Shown piece by piece: positions 2,319 to 7,075 of a stretch of 28,614 nucleotides of DNA. Under the pieces are notes generated by a model that had not been told where the DNA came from, made no database searches, and saw only the letters and a program-made list of their open reading frames with translations. Origin of the DNA: Candidatus Bathyarchaeota archaeon (lineage in GTDB: Archaea > Thermoproteota > Bathyarchaeia > Bathyarchaeales > Bathycorpusculaceae); assembly GCA_030672945.1 (NCBI GenBank), contig DAOVFL010000001.1:1-28614 (forward strand), in the 5' to 3' direction. Positions within the stretch are counted from its first letter, which is position 1. The number at the start of each line of letters is the position of its first letter. The translations under genes and the position numbers were made by a program.

Positions 2319-3047
2319 GTGAAAATTTGTGATGTTCATGTTCATTTAGGAAAATCGGGACCATGGCAACCGTACGTGAAACCATCAATGTACGTGGATA
2401 AGCTCATACACTTATTTAAAAAATACAATGTTGAACGAGCTGTCGTTTTCCCAAATCCAAATGTTGGCGACAAATACCCCAAAATGAACGATTACATTGC
2501 AGACTGCGTAAAGAAGCATCCAAACCGCCTAATTGGTTTTGGACGGGTAGATCCGAGAAGAGAAGACGCTGCGGAAGAGTTGAATCGCATAAAAAACAGT
2601 TTAGGCTTAGCCGGGCTTAAATTGCATCCGATGGTGGAGTGTTTCAGACCAGATCATCCCTTCTTTGAAAAGTTCTTTGAAAAAATTAATGAACTGAAAC
2701 TTCCAGTGCTCTTTCACACGGGAACTGGATTTTCCTCACCAGGGTTAATCCTAAAAATCGCTAAGAAACATCCGAAGTTACCAATAATTTTAGGTCATTT
2801 AAGAGAAGCCGCCGTTAACGCTTTAGGAATGGCTGAGAACATTTATGTTGAAACTTCTGGCACTTTACCAGAGTTCATCGAGCTTTCAGTGGACATAGAT
2901 GAAGACAGAGTATTATTCGGCTCTGATGTTCCATATTACCGTTATCCCGTCCAGATAGCAATTGTGAAGGCAGCGGAAATCTCTCGAAAGGCGAAAAGAA
3001 AAATCTTCTACGAAAACTTTCAAAATCTGTTTATTAAAAAAGAATAA
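2319..3047 (+). CDS. Metal-dependent amidohydrolase (Amidohydro_2 TIM barrel)
   Basis: DVHVH, GLKLHP, VLFHTG, ILGH and VLFGSDVP give a complete metal-ligand set. GTG start after a purine-rich RBS. Confidence 0.9.
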   Translation: MKICDVHVHLGKSGPWQPYVKPSMYVDKLIHLFKKYNVERAVVFPNPNVGDKYPKMNDYIADCVKKHPNRLIGFGRVDPRREDAAEELNRIKNSLGLAGLKLHPMVECFRPDHPFFEKFFEKINELKLPVLFHTGTGFSSPGLILKIAKKHPKLPIILGHLREAAVNALGMAENIYVETSGTLPEFIELSVDIDEDRVLFGSDVPYYRYPVQIAIVKAAEISRKAKRKIFYENFQNLFIKKE

Positions 3048-3080
3048 GGATGGAAAACACTGACTAAATGGAGCAATATC

Positions 3081-4481
3081 ATGTCACTTAAATGTATTCA
3101 ATGCGGTTCAAAATCTCCACCTTATCCGCCAAAAAGCATGTGTGAAAAATGCGGAGGAATATTGGAATATGAGATTATTCTACAAAATAAACATAAGATC
3201 AAGTTTTCTGGCAAGCTTCGTTTTTGGAGGTATAGGGCGTTACTTCCTCCTGTAAGTAATATTATGAGTTTAGGTGAAGGTGGAACACGTCTACATAAGG
3301 CTAAGAGGCTTGCCAAAAAAGTTGGGTTGAATGATCTTTATCTAAAGGACGAAACCAGAAACCCAACCAACTCTTTTAGAGATCGTGCAGCAGCACTTCT
3401 AACTACAAATGCAATAGATCTTAAACATGACACATTAATCTGTGCAACCAACGGAAACCTAGGTGCTTCCTTAGCTGCCTATTCTGCAAAGGCTGGGTTA
3501 ATCTGTAATGTAATTGTTCCCAAACTTGTTGACGTTGGAAAACTGGCTCAAATGCTCGTCTACGACGCTGCCATTGAAGAGTTCGGAGTAACAGTCGACG
3601 ACTCCATAATCAGAGCTGAAGCTTTAGCCAAAGAAACTGGCTGGTATCAAGCAACCGCAGAGCTAAATCCGCTTGTAATTGAAGCACAGAAAACAATTTC
3701 CTATGAAGTCTATGAGCAGTTTGGTGTTCCAGACTGGCTTATAGTTTCCATGGGAGGAGGCGGAACCATATACTCAATATGGAAAGGCTTCAAAGAACTT
3801 GAACAGCTCGGAATAACGAATTCCATGCCAAGAATGATCGGAGTCCAACCTAAGGGATGCGCCCCCATAACTAGAACATTACTGGAAGGTCATTTCCAAC
3901 CATTAAAAATTTCGAAGCCATCTACCCGTGCACTGGCTGTACTAGTAGCTCACCCTCTTCAAGGCGAACTAGCTATAAAGGCGATAAAAGAATCAGACGG
4001 CTTGACTTTAACAGTTTCCGACTCTAAGATCTTCACAGCAGAACTTCAGATAGCTAAACTCGAAGGAATATTCGCTGAACCAGCAAGCTCTGCCACAATA
4101 GCAGCACTAAAAAAGCTTATCAAAGAAGAGCAAATCAGCAAAAATGAAAGTGTTGTATGCCTCATCACTGGAAGCGGACTTAAAGCCACAAATGTACTAC
4201 AAGCATTAACCAAAAAACAGAAGACAGCTGTTCTAGGCTTAGACATAAGCACAAAAGAAAAAATACTTCGAATCTTAAGCATAAAAGACACATACGGGTA
4301 TAACGCGTGGAAAAAACTGGGAAAAGTTATAACAAGAGCGGCCATATACCAACACCTAAACGAGCTCTCAGAAAAAGGACTAGTAGTAGGCTACGGAAAA
4401 AATGGAAAAAAATTCTTCAAAATAACAGAACGCGGTAAGAAAGTTCTACGTGCAATTGATGATATAAAACTTCTACTTTAA
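3081..4481 (+). CDS. Threonine-synthase-like fold-type II protein with Lys-to-Arg at the PLP site, fused to a C-terminal PadR-like winged HTH
   Basis: N-terminal CxxC..CxxC, SLGEGGT, NPTNSFRDR (canonical NPTGSFKDR), TNGNLG, SMGGGGT, EPASSA, TGSGLK. Residues ~391-466 read YGY..TRAAIYQHLNELSEKGL..FKITERG. Confidence 0.9.
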   Translation: MSLKCIQCGSKSPPYPPKSMCEKCGGILEYEIILQNKHKIKFSGKLRFWRYRALLPPVSNIMSLGEGGTRLHKAKRLAKKVGLNDLYLKDETRNPTNSFRDRAAALLTTNAIDLKHDTLICATNGNLGASLAAYSAKAGLICNVIVPKLVDVGKLAQMLVYDAAIEEFGVTVDDSIIRAEALAKETGWYQATAELNPLVIEAQKTISYEVYEQFGVPDWLIVSMGGGGTIYSIWKGFKELEQLGITNSMPRMIGVQPKGCAPITRTLLEGHFQPLKISKPSTRALAVLVAHPLQGELAIKAIKESDGLTLTVSDSKIFTAELQIAKLEGIFAEPASSATIAALKKLIKEEQISKNESVVCLITGSGLKATNVLQALTKKQKTAVLGLDISTKEKILRILSIKDTYGYNAWKKLGKVITRAAIYQHLNELSEKGLVVGYGKNGKKFFKITERGKKVLRAIDDIKLLL

Positions 4482-4492
4482 CCGGAAATGCT

Positions 4493-4522
4493 TAATTAGT
4501 ATAGTTACAACTATACTAATTA
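4493..4522. promoter_or_regulatory. Perfect 30-bp palindrome, candidate operator upstream of the ECF S-component gene
   Basis: taattagtatagtt-ac-aactatactaatta: two 14-bp arms with a 2-bp spacer, ending 8 nt before the ATG at 4531. Confidence 0.7.
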
Positions 4523-4530
4523 GATTTGAA

Positions 4531-5277
4531 ATGACCAGAGAAAAAGAAATATCTCCTTTCAACTTGGCGATTACGGCTGTCTTCACTGCACTCGTTTGTG
4601 TCGCAACAATGACGTTTTCCATTAATGTTCCTGCGACACGAGGTTTCTTCAATATAGGTGAATCGATGGTTTTTCTCTCCGCCCTCCTTTTCGGGCCTTT
4701 CGTTGGAGCTTTCGCCGGAGGAATAGGCTCCATGCTGGCTGATCTGCTGTTAGGCTTCCCGCATTATGCACCGGCTACGCTTATCATCAAGGCTTGTGAA
4801 GGCGCCTTCGTAGGAGCACTTAAGAAAAGAAATCCAAGGTTCAGTTCCAAACTTGAATGGAAATTCTTCACGCTGATCTTAGGTGTTGTTGCTGGTTTCT
4901 TACTGGGTTGGGTTGGCATGTCTTACTATAGTGGTGATGTAGAACTCAGCTTGGGTTCAAGTTCATTCATGTTCTATCTTCCAGCAGAGTTCTGGTTATT
5001 TCTCGGAGTCATAACTTCTCTGTCCATAATATTCTTAGGCTTCTTAGCTGATCCAGAGTTCGGTTGGACAGTTTTCTCAGTGATCACCGGTGGTTTCATC
5101 ATGGTTTTAGGATACTTCCTATACCAACAGTTCTTCATAGGCCCACTTTTCAACATTGAAGCTGTAGCCATAGCAGAAATACCAATAAATATCGGACAAA
5201 TGATTATAGGTGCAACAGTGGCATTACCAATAGCCAAAATAATTTGGCGAGCGCTCCCATACCTGAAAAAGAAATAA
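4531..5277 (+). CDS. ECF transporter S-component (HmpT/PdxU2/DUF1393-like) with an internal hydrophobic insertion
   Basis: AxxxA in TM1 (AVFTA), GFFNIGE, GPFVGAFAGGIGSMLADLLLG, YAPATLIIK..EG, NIGQMIIG. Polytopic, 248 aa. Confidence 0.85.
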   Translation: MTREKEISPFNLAITAVFTALVCVATMTFSINVPATRGFFNIGESMVFLSALLFGPFVGAFAGGIGSMLADLLLGFPHYAPATLIIKACEGAFVGALKKRNPRFSSKLEWKFFTLILGVVAGFLLGWVGMSYYSGDVELSLGSSSFMFYLPAEFWLFLGVITSLSIIFLGFLADPEFGWTVFSVITGGFIMVLGYFLYQQFFIGPLFNIEAVAIAEIPINIGQMIIGATVALPIAKIIWRALPYLKKK

Positions 5278-5301
5278 TCGCATGCTGCACAAAATATACA
5301 A

Positions 5302-6351
5302 ATGAGAGGGACAAATAGTTTGCATCTTCCTTTTGGAAAAATTCCCATAGACATTCTTCAGGAAGTTGTTTTCAAAAATCTGGGTGCGAAACGCACAGAA
5401 GTTGTTTTAGGTCCTGCCGCTGGGTTTGATGGCGCCGTCATAGACGTTGGAGATAAATCCATAATAGTTTCTACGGATCCTATTACTGGTGCAACAGAGC
5501 GAATTGGTTGGCTCGCCGTAAACATTAACGCAAATGATGTTGCCACATTCGGTGTTGAACCAGCATTCTTCTTATCATCCATCTTACTTCCTGAAAATGC
5601 AGATAAGAATACCGTTGAAACGATATGTATTCAAATGGATAAGTCTTCAAGAGATTTAGGGATGGCTATTGTTGGAGGACATTGCGAAGTAACTCCCAAA
5701 CTGACCAATCCAATAATTGTAGGCTGTGCTATGGGCATAACAGAAAAAGGAAACTACGTAACAGCGGGTGGAGCTAGGATTGGAGACAAGCTTATATTGA
5801 CCAAGAGTGCAGGAATCGAAGGCACAGCAATTCTGGCAGTGGATAGAGAAAAGCAATTGAAGAAAGCATTAAGTTCCACTATACTACGGAATGCCAAGAA
5901 ATTCTATGACCAAATAAGCGTGGTCAAAGATGCATCTGAAGCCATCCAAACACAAGGAGTTAATGCTATGCATGATCCAACAGAAGGCGGTGTGACCGGA
6001 GGAATCCATGAAATGGCAGATGCATCAAATCTAGGTGTAAAAATCATCGAGAAAGAAATTTCAATCCAACCAGAAACAGTTAAAATCTGCGAATTCTTTA
6101 AAATCGACCCACTACAACTAATAAGTTCTGGAGCCTTACTGATTTCCGCCAAACCAAACCTCGCAAACAAGGTAGTCAGAAGGTTAGAGCAATCCCACAT
6201 TCATGCCTCTATCATTGGGGAATTCGTGGAAAACCCGCAAGATCGCCTATTAGTAAAGGAAAATGGACGTATTCAAACCTTGCCAAGACCTGTTTCCGAC
6301 CATCTTTGGCTTATCATTCAAAGAGAGAAGGATTATTGGAAAAATGTGTGA
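5302..6351 (+). CDS. AIR-synthase (PurM/HypE/ThiL/SelD) superfamily protein
   Basis: GFDGAV, STDP, NINANDVAT, VGGHCE, GDKLILTK, AMHDPTEGG, SSGALL. Exact substrate is not assignable. Confidence 0.85.
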   Translation: MRGTNSLHLPFGKIPIDILQEVVFKNLGAKRTEVVLGPAAGFDGAVIDVGDKSIIVSTDPITGATERIGWLAVNINANDVATFGVEPAFFLSSILLPENADKNTVETICIQMDKSSRDLGMAIVGGHCEVTPKLTNPIIVGCAMGITEKGNYVTAGGARIGDKLILTKSAGIEGTAILAVDREKQLKKALSSTILRNAKKFYDQISVVKDASEAIQTQGVNAMHDPTEGGVTGGIHEMADASNLGVKIIEKEISIQPETVKICEFFKIDPLQLISSGALLISAKPNLANKVVRRLEQSHIHASIIGEFVENPQDRLLVKENGRIQTLPRPVSDHLWLIIQREKDYWKNV

Positions 6352-7075
6352 CATGTCCATAATAATAGCAACTAAGAATGAACAGGAATACTTGGAAAAA
6401 ACTCTGAAACACTTGAGTTTAGCCATGATTGAAGCAAAAAAAATGAACATAAATGTTGAACTCATCGTAATCGATGGTAGTAATGATAATACGCTTAGCA
6501 TAGCAAAGAAATTCACTGAAAAAGCATATTATCTATTATTACAAGGCGTCTCAAAAGCAAGGAACTACGGAGCCAAGTTATCTGAAGGTCAAATTCTAAT
6601 CTTTATGGATGCAGACACAATAGTGCAAAAAAACACTCTAGTTGACATCTTCAAAACTCTCCGAAATGAAACTGTTGTTTCAGTAATAACATATGTATTA
6701 CCAGTTCACTATCACATGTTACCGTTATCCGCAAAGATTTTCTACGCAATAGATAAAATCGCCATCAAAACTTGCGGTATAATAGGATTTCTTATACGGT
6801 TTTATAATAGAGGAGACATCGTGGTAATTAGGAAAACTGTTTTTAACATGGTAGGAGGTTTCGAAGAAAAACTGTACATGATGGAAATAACAACCTTGCT
6901 AGTCAACGCATCGAAATATGGACACATTAAAGTTCTATCCACTCCCGTATTTGAGTCAAGCAGGCGTCTAAAAAAATGGGGAGTAATAAAAAGTTATAAG
7001 ATCTGGTGGAAAAATTATTTCTCTTTCTATGTGCTTAAACACTTACATGATGTCAAATATGAAGTGGTCAGGTAA
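6344..7075 (+). CDS. Glycosyltransferase family 2
   Basis: IIIATKNE, VIDGSNDNT, ARNYGA, FMDAD (DxD), GGFEE, SSRR. Likely start is ATG 6344 or 6353, not 6263. Confidence 0.9.
   Translation: MCDMSIIIATKNEQEYLEKTLKHLSLAMIEAKKMNINVELIVIDGSNDNTLSIAKKFTEKAYYLLLQGVSKARNYGAKLSEGQILIFMDADTIVQKNTLVDIFKTLRNETVVSVITYVLPVHYHMLPLSAKIFYAIDKIAIKTCGIIGFLIRFYNRGDIVVIRKTVFNMVGGFEEKLYMMEITTLLVNASKYGHIKVLSTPVFESSRRLKKWGVIKSYKIWWKNYFSFYVLKHLHDVKYEVVR

Follow-up and report, generated by a model that had tools for sequence, protein, structure and literature searches.

The locus

The window analyzed here is a stretch of 28,614 nt (positions 1 to 28,614 of contig DAOVFL010000001.1, forward strand; GenBank assembly GCA_030672945.1) from the genome of a Candidatus Bathyarchaeota archaeon, a metagenome-assembled genome (MAG) of 850 kb in 114 contigs with 72% completeness. 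Close to the beginning of the window lies a compact array of four genes centered on a threonine synthase (ThrC)-like protein that is fused to a DNA-binding domain (hereafter REG). The four open reading frames (ORFs), all on the plus strand and separated by 33, 49 and 24 nt, encode, respectively, a 242-aa protein of the metal-dependent hydrolase/decarboxylase family Amidohydro_2 (2319-3047; PF04909, Pfam E-value 2e-29); the 466-aa REG (3081-4481), which combines a Lys-less ThrC fold with a C-terminal PadR-like winged helix-turn-helix (wHTH) domain and is predicted to be a regulator responsive to vitamin B6 or its cofactor form, pyridoxal 5′-phosphate (PLP); a 248-aa S component of an energy-coupling factor (ECF) transporter (4531-5277), a member of the PdxU/HmpT family PF07155 and the predicted B6 vitamer-binding subunit; and a 349-aa ATP-utilizing protein of the PurM superfamily (5302-6351; AIRS and AIRS_C domains), a candidate salvage enzyme. 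An inverted repeat, the predicted operator (4493-4522), is located between the REG and S component genes. A previous interpretation of this stretch, made without database searches (hereafter the sequence-only reading), described four co-oriented, closely spaced genes, one of them coding for a fold-type II protein that lacks the catalytic lysine and is fused to a DNA-binding domain. Both claims are borne out, the former by the ORF coordinates and Pfam assignments, and the latter by the presence of Arg100 together with the PALP and PadR domains in REG.

REG, a threonine synthase homolog fused to a winged helix-turn-helix domain

The bulk of REG matches the Pfam family PALP (E-value 2e-72), whereas residues 390-466 (encoded at 4248-4478, plus strand) match PadR and HTH_45; the PadR match (PF03551, residues 395-457) scores 31.0 bits against a cut-off of 27, and the recognition helix maps to residues 419-431. 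At the N-terminus, REG contains the four-cysteine zinc ribbon (C5, C8, C21 and C24; 3093-3152) that is common to the archaeal-type ThrC. The motif NPTGSFKDR, which in ThrC includes the lysine forming the Schiff base with PLP, is represented in REG by NPTNSFRDR, with Arg100 (codon AGA, 3378-3380) in the lysine position. An AlphaFold (AF2) model of REG built from 80 family members (mean confidence, pLDDT, 91.9) consists of the ThrC fold (residues 1-366), a disordered linker (367-388) and the wHTH domain (390-465), which comprises three helices, a β-hairpin wing and a terminal helix, in this order. In a Foldseek search with this model, ThrC structures rank first, with template modeling (TM) scores of 0.88-0.90 normalized by target, and no solved chain among the matches carries the additional C-terminal domain.

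In the public records, REG is called threonine synthase. The protein could, in principle, be an enzyme as annotated, with either threonine synthase or a Lys-independent fold-type II activity and with the wHTH playing an autoregulatory or another role; REG passes the cut-off of the generic thrC model TIGR00260 (211 vs 167 bits) and retains nearly all residues that are conserved in ThrC. However, the best-matching model, NF004170/PRK05638, aligns with REG end to end, including the wHTH, at 378.3 bits, which is below the cut-off of 421, and the same genome encodes, on contig C28, a canonical 369-aa ThrC with the intact SFKDR signature (NF005035, 437 bits against a cut-off of 301). Furthermore, no fewer than 10 different residues, including Leu, Ile, Val and Met, occupy the position of the Schiff-base lysine in the REG family. 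The loss of this lysine is incompatible with the catalytic mechanism shared by the fold-type II enzymes. An enzymatic role of REG thus appears extremely improbable. Sequence comparison identifies REG as a paralog of the canonical, Lys-bearing ThrC of the same genome, and given this paralogy to the actual enzyme and the absence of the defining lysine, REG does not appear to be a threonine synthase.

The dichotomy between the fused and the unfused proteins is apparent in a survey of homologs among 1.84 billion representatives at 50% identity. Among the best 150 matches, the lysine is missing in 65 of the 71 long, wHTH-bearing proteins with a readable motif and present in 61 of the 67 short, unfused ThrC homologs; the residues that replace it in the fused proteins are R, L, I, V, M, T, F, S, Y, N or A. 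In an alignment of 85 fused and 59 canonical proteins, the Schiff-base position (K in 100% of the canonical proteins) is the sole universal difference between the two groups, which is partly by construction because this position defined the groups, whereas the retention of the other residues is not. The ThrC-invariant residues kept in the fused group include the zinc-ribbon cysteines (conserved in at least 86% of the proteins of both groups), E66, T69, K89, N94-P95-T96, S98, F/Y99, D101-R102, G125-N126, E201, K204-T205, the glycine loop 225-228, E333-P334 and the T363-G-x-G-L-K368 motif. The motif A-V/I-Y-Q-H-L in the recognition helix is nearly invariant across the family (Y423, 98%; H425, 96%).

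In the phylogenetic tree, the fused proteins form a single clade (support of 98 in the Shimodaira-Hasegawa-like approximate likelihood ratio test, SH-aLRT) that splits into a subclade with hydrophobic residues in the lysine position and a subclade with arginine. A small Lys-bearing clade from Bathyarchaeia is nested within the arginine subclade, which implies either multiple losses of the lysine or its return through one R-to-K transition. The Lys-keeping fused paralogs (L069, L070, L073-L075, L077 and L079; P0125 and P0128), with about 50% identity, still adjoin S component genes, and the loci of the Lys-keeping clade carry a related site of the type TATTATAGTT-NN-AACTA. In four loci from one family of Bathyarchaeia (L117, L118, L120 and L121, from genomes G142, G384, G034 and G393, respectively), REG is adjacent to, and divergently oriented from, an unfused ThrC-like paralog with 41-42% identity, an arrangement that could reflect an origin through tandem duplication.

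Gene neighborhoods of REG in Archaea

The main set of loci, analyzed with tblastn, includes eighty loci from Bathyarchaeia, in which the gene identities were confirmed by Pfam scans of ten representative ORFs. In about 73 of these 80 loci, the gene directly downstream of REG encodes a PF07155 S component, so that the operator and the S component gene stay linked to REG, as expected under the sequence-only reading. The S component occurs in two lengths, about 245 aa and about 175 aa (170-190 aa). In three loci (L021, L025 and L035), the S component position is occupied by the genes for PdxS (SOR_SNZ, 341 bits) and then PdxT (SNO, 184 bits), the two subunits of PLP synthase. The PurM-like gene follows in about 62 of the 80 loci. 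One of the PdxS loci, L021 (DATHCJ010000024.1), is filed under a 'Limnocylindrales bacterium' MAG; it is a typical Bathyarchaeia REG-PdxS-PdxT-PurM locus (68% identity), and its placement in a bacterial MAG is probably a binning error. In four other loci (L044, L062, L063 and L072), the S component gene is followed by a gene for a 240-aa NAD_kinase_C protein in place of the PurM-like gene; because all four come from one sub-lineage, to which Ca. Bathyarchaeum tardum belongs, they count as a single event, which is weak evidence.

A second set of 22 distant loci, including 20 from other families of Thermoproteota, one from Aigarchaeota and one from Thermococcus, encodes REG homologs that all (22/22) lack the lysine. 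REG is divergently oriented with respect to an S component gene in 8 of these loci and to PdxS-PdxT in 2, and the loci with these divergent arrangements share the palindrome CCTATATATAGG. Among the Asgard archaea, a Promethearchaeota contig carries an S component gene directly upstream of a Lys-less REG homolog, and in a Hermodarchaeota contig (L159), the S-EcfA-EcfA′ genes lie about 1.8 kb away from REG, in the opposite strand, beyond a gene for an HNH/RRXRR endonuclease (2682-3968 of L159). PdxS-PdxT genes divergent from a REG homolog were also detected in a metagenomic contig of unassigned taxon. Altogether, the REG family is represented in Bathyarchaeia, other Thermoproteota including Aigarchaeota-type lineages, Thermococci and Asgard archaea, and across at least two phyla and several independent arrangements, REG is found recurrently beside either a transporter subunit of the PdxU/HmpT family or PLP synthase.

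The predicted operator

The palindrome between the regulator and transporter genes, which the sequence-only reading considered perfect over 30 bp, indeed has two 14-nt arms (4493-4506 and 4509-4522) that are 100% complementary, with a non-palindromic 2-nt center. It begins 12 nt past the REG stop codon and ends 8 nt before the ATG of the S component gene. The predicted operator core, TAGTATAG-N6-CTATACTA, encompasses 22 bp (4497-4518), is centered 23.5 nt before this ATG and overlaps the region in which the TATA box and the B recognition element (BRE) of the S component gene are expected. An operator that covers the TATA/BRE position represents the usual geometry of repression in archaea.

The conservation of the palindrome in relatives was also borne out: 64 of the 76 loci contain the core with no more than 2 mismatches, 37 of them without any, and the site is lost along with REG. 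Typically, the core starts 12-46 nt past the REG stop codon; measured from the first in-frame ATG of the next gene, its center lies 21-24 or 38-40 nt upstream in most of the loci. The three PdxS loci bear the same motif as the S component loci. In the 850-kb host genome, the 22-bp core is unique at up to 2 mismatches, and accordingly, no second operator was found at this threshold upstream of the amidohydrolase gene or of REG itself, where it could be a sign of autoregulation. Similarly, in five genomes of 2.2-3.1 Mb, the operator is present only at the REG locus, and a reversed control pattern yields 0-1 matches. Given the recurrence of the core in 64 of the 76 loci and its restriction to the REG locus in these five genomes, the palindrome is far beyond chance expectation. 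One locus (L017; G044:C3:1139891-1139929) contains two overlapping copies of the operator downstream of REG, offset by 17 nt.

The palindrome could also be considered an RNA element, either a terminator of REG or a hairpin in the 5′ region of the S component mRNA, in which case the gene adjacency would amount to conserved synteny without regulation. The site starts close to the REG stop codon, and its predicted fold has an energy of -15.1 kcal/mol (z = -3.5). However, this hairpin is not followed by a T-run, and the conservation of the arms is that of sequence rather than pairing: 44 of the changes in the arms are asymmetric and 6 are symmetric, whereas the spacer varies freely. Changes that are mostly one-sided and break the complementarity point to two protein half-sites rather than to a selected RNA hairpin. 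Moreover, ten S-PurM loci without REG have no operator site at up to 3 mismatches, although the S and PurM-like genes remain, and in the divergent arrangements of the distant loci, the palindrome, which is related to but different from the Bathyarchaeia one, lies between REG and S or PdxS, beside a TATA-like element, that is, between two promoters. An RNA element is therefore a highly unlikely explanation of the palindrome, compared to a binding site for REG. In one of the REG-less loci, L151, a degenerate operator relic is discernible about 60-85 nt before the S gene match, with an intact TAGTATAG half-site and a shifted second arm.

The S component and the probable link to vitamin B6

The protein encoded downstream of the operator is confidently assigned to PF07155 (ECF-ribofla_trS, 113.7 bits against a cut-off of 26.7, E-value 1e-32) and, with about 6-7 hydrophobic segments, is a small polytopic membrane protein. 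The only significant sequence match in the PDB is chain S of 4HZU, HmpT (E-value 1e-9 over about 90 residues). The HmpT subunit of Lactobacillus brevis binds pyridoxamine (PMC4860826), and both PdxU and PdxU2/HmpT are PF07155/COG4720 proteins (PMC9997740). Like these, the Bathyarchaeota protein belongs to this family and is an S component of group II, whose EcfA and EcfT partners are encoded at another locus, but the similarity to HmpT is weak, and the 248-aa protein is longer than the 170-190-aa forms from other Bathyarchaeia loci. The genes for EcfT (CbiQ) and an EcfA truncated by the contig end were identified on contig C99 of the host genome, so that a docking module is available to the S component. 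Look-ups of the S component and the PurM-like protein in a protein atlas yielded only generic family names.

The phyletic patterns were surveyed in 41 relatives, of which 25 are at least 90% complete (hereafter high-quality). PdxS was not found in 38 of the 41, including 22 of the 25 high-quality genomes, which is consistent with a dependence on B6 uptake, absence of a gene from a MAG being weak evidence. There is no clean anticorrelation of REG with either PdxS or the PdxK/ThiD family in this survey, so this comparison speaks neither for nor against.

The sequence-only reading allowed for a ligand related either to B6 or to thiamine (B1). Under the thiamine scenario, the S component would import hydroxymethylpyrimidine (HMP) or thiazole, and the PurM-like protein, similar to ThiL (E-value 3e-28), would phosphorylate a thiamine intermediate; HmpT was originally predicted to be an HMP transporter. 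In contrast, a canonical ThiL that scores above the cut-off is encoded elsewhere in the genome, HmpT turned out to bind pyridoxamine, and several independent lineages have PdxS-PdxT instead of the S component beside REG, along with the same operator. Because of this alternative target and the presence of the canonical ThiL, the thiamine part of the claim was rejected as very unlikely, whereas the B6 part, which is compatible with both the PdxS-PdxT target and HmpT as the closest relative of the S component, stands.

The PurM-like protein and the amidohydrolase

The family closest to the PurM-like protein is HypE (TIGR02124, 135 bits against a cut-off of 251.6, E-value 2e-39), followed by ThiL (TIGR01379, 98.7 bits against a cut-off of 184); the match to the PDB structure 2Z1E has an E-value of 8.5e-30. 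The HypE assignment was considered and rejected given that the score is below the cut-off and the protein ends with DYWKNV, lacking the C-terminal cysteine (the PRIC tail of HypE). Thus, the PurM-like protein shares with HypE and ThiL the two-domain AIRS/AIRS_C ATP-utilizing fold but differs from them in falling below both cut-offs, in the missing cysteine and in its operonic association with a vitamin S component. Elsewhere, the host genome encodes a canonical ThiL (262 bits, contig C101), two PurM proteins and PurL, and by sequence comparison the protein in question is none of HypE, ThiL, PurM or PurL. A word-indexed search retrieves only its close relatives from Bathyarchaeia, labeled "AIR synthase family protein" or "hydrogenase maturation factor", and homologs with 36-47% identity are widespread in the phylum.

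Orthologs of the PurM-like protein are present in 39 of the 41 relatives and in all 25 high-quality genomes, including those without REG. In the REG-less loci, the S and PurM-like genes form a co-directional pair in 6 of 10 cases and are adjacent in other orientations in 2 more. Family f38 has the PurM-like gene in a divergent orientation relative to REG-S. The tightest unit is thus the pair of the S component and the PurM-like protein, with REG and the operator as an optional layer of control, and the persistence of this pair without REG raises the possibility that the PurM-like protein serves as an enzyme of B6 salvage. By synteny and analogy, it could use the vitamer brought in by the S component as a substrate, a kinase activity being one option. 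Strong matches to the PdxK/ThiD family are absent from 15 of the 25 high-quality relatives, and alternative B6 kinases remain to be found (PMC9997740). The tight pairing with S, the divergent arrangement in f38, the presence in all high-quality genomes, and the gaps in PdxS and PdxK/ThiD all point in the direction of a missing, non-orthologous B6 salvage enzyme, most simply an ATP-dependent pyridoxal/pyridoxine/pyridoxamine kinase, with the amidohydrolase as an optional pre-processing enzyme; this assignment is tentative, and we regard it as possible but rather doubtful. Such an enzyme would occupy the slot that belongs to pdxK in the bacterial PdxR regulons.

Homologs of the amidohydrolase adjoin REG, S or the PurM-like gene in about 9 loci, in three arrangements, namely Amh-REG, S-Amh-PurM or REG-S-Amh, and Amh-S-PurM (Amh, amidohydrolase). 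The nearest solved relatives, with weak, partial similarity, are LigW and the resorcylate-type decarboxylases, which act non-oxidatively on hydroxy-aromatic acids. Within the module outlined in the sequence-only reading, conserved synteny extends over REG, the operator and the S component, whereas the amidohydrolase is an occasional accessory, and REG itself is optional.

Proposed mechanism of regulation

These findings are best accommodated by a scheme in which REG is a PLP-type sensor and repressor of a B6 uptake and salvage operon, an interpretation that we consider likely. REG would act as a transcription factor rather than as a threonine synthase. The ThrC-derived domain would keep the PLP pocket and bind PLP or a closely related phosphorylated B6 vitamer; with arginine in place of Lys100, this pocket cannot form the internal aldimine, so that binding of PLP would most likely be reversible, as befits a sensor. 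The PadR-like wHTH domain, presumably within a dimer, would bind the palindrome at 4493-4522, and since the operator overlaps the core promoter of the S component gene, binding of REG would repress the S-PurM-like operon when B6 is sufficient. The S component would dock on the shared EcfAA′T module and import a B6 vitamer, on which the PurM-like enzyme and, where present, the amidohydrolase would then act. Of the elements of this scheme, the domain layout of REG, its lysine loss, the canonical ThrC paralog, the conserved, unique and co-lost operator, and the repeated linkage to PF07155 S components or PdxS-PdxT are shown by the present comparisons. That PLP is the effector, that REG represses rather than activates and that the S component takes up a B6 vitamer is what we infer, whereas the reactions ascribed to the PurM-like protein and the amidohydrolase are speculative. 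The key proposal of the sequence-only reading, a one-component regulator that derives from a dead fold-type II PLP enzyme and controls vitamin uptake, is supported by the paralogy with ThrC, the loss of the lysine, the synteny and the joint loss of REG and the operator.

A variant of this scheme retains REG as the regulator of the operon but replaces the B6 pool, as the effector, with an amino compound engaging non-covalently held PLP in an external aldimine, as γ-aminobutyric acid (GABA) does in GabR, or with a ligand of the ThrC type, such as O-phosphohomoserine. The residues on the substrate side of ThrC are largely conserved in REG as well, there are Lys-bearing members of the family, and MocR regulators, such as GabR, employ PLP together with a second effector (PMC5320631). 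Nevertheless, the recurrent targets are the PdxU/HmpT-family S component and PdxS-PdxT, no genes of amino acid pathways were seen among the targets, and there is one operator per genome, all of which makes an effector other than the B6 pool unlikely.

Several observations weigh against B6-dependent repression by REG. The family PF07155 also includes riboflavin-specific and other S components, so the substrate is not readable from the family alone. The existence of family members that keep the lysine implies that its loss is not obligatory for function. REG is present in only 21 of the 41 relatives and also occurs in genomes that have PdxS elsewhere, and hence is dispensable. In the remaining distant loci, about half of that set, the REG homolog is found beside unrelated genes, such as those for GatE and aCPSF1. 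Finally, the sequence matches in public runs come exclusively from DNA runs, namely marine-sediment and cold-seep metagenomes. As regards the unrelated neighbors, REG homologs of the arginine type directly follow housekeeping genes, namely aCPSF1 in Thermococcus chitonophagus (L084) and, in L129 and probably also L130-L132, a GatE-like gene; not being located beside B6 genes, these homologs would have to find their targets elsewhere in the genome.

Flanking genes

Downstream of the module, the longest ORF of a family 2 glycosyltransferase (GT2; 6263-7075) shares 89 nt (6263-6351) with the terminal part of the PurM-like gene; the Pfam match starts only at residue 32, so that the true start of the GT2 gene is probably located further downstream. 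Upstream of the module, an ORF for an ATP-dependent DNA ligase on the minus strand (295-1686, 463 aa) encompasses only the N-terminal and adenylation domains, and a separate 88-aa ORF (2-265) continues downstream of it on the same strand; the ligase gene appears to be interrupted near positions 265-300.

Relationship to known regulators and implications

The closest functional counterparts of REG are the PLP-dependent bacterial regulators of the MocR/GabR type, including PdxR, which are likewise one-component systems with a PLP-enzyme fold as the sensor and a wHTH domain for DNA binding. PdxR and REG also share the target set, which for REG is indicated by gene neighborhoods and shared operators and includes pdxST and a PdxU-type transporter of PF07155, often in a divergent orientation; the bacterial PdxR regulon consists of pdxST, pdxK and pdxU (PMC5320631). 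The two groups of regulators are, however, not homologous. The sensor of REG has the type II (ThrC) fold, whereas that of MocR has the type I (aminotransferase) fold; the DNA-binding domain is C-terminal and PadR-like in REG but N-terminal and of the GntR type in MocR; the PLP lysine is usually lost in the REG family, unlike in MocR; and REG is archaeal, whereas MocR regulators are reported to be absent from Archaea (PMC5320631). Furthermore, the overlap of the REG operator with the core promoter suggests repression rather than activation by the apo-form. Since the sensor fold differs, the DNA-binding domain is of another kind and placed elsewhere in the protein, and the lysine is missing, REG does not belong to the MocR family and by analogy would qualify as a convergent functional counterpart of bacterial PdxR.

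In relation to its other relatives, REG shares with ThrC (TIGR00260, NF004170/PRK05638) the fold, the N-terminal zinc ribbon and most of the invariant residues but differs in the absence of the Schiff-base lysine, in the additional linker and wHTH domain, and in forming a separate clade beside the canonical ThrC. The winged helix, with a score above the PadR cut-off and a C-terminal helix after the wing, is akin to the PadR family; however, typical PadR proteins consist of about 110-180 aa and sense phenolics or drugs, whereas the wHTH of REG is appended to an enzyme-fold sensor of 370 residues.

In a literature search that covered mostly non-subscription journals, we found neither a published description of a ThrC-wHTH regulator nor a transcriptional regulator of vitamin B6 metabolism in Archaea. 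If the proposed role is correct, the REG family would fill this gap and would present a clear case of convergent evolution, whereby a type II PLP-enzyme fold was turned into a cofactor sensor through fusion to a different wHTH domain. Because members of the family are systematically annotated as "threonine synthase", metabolic reconstructions of amino acid prototrophy are distorted. For study, the module offers a defined 22-bp predicted operator with a single-operon regulon. In lineages where PLP synthase mostly went undetected, it also points to a candidate B6 transporter, together with what could be a new salvage enzyme, which has a bearing on vitamin dependency in sediment archaea.

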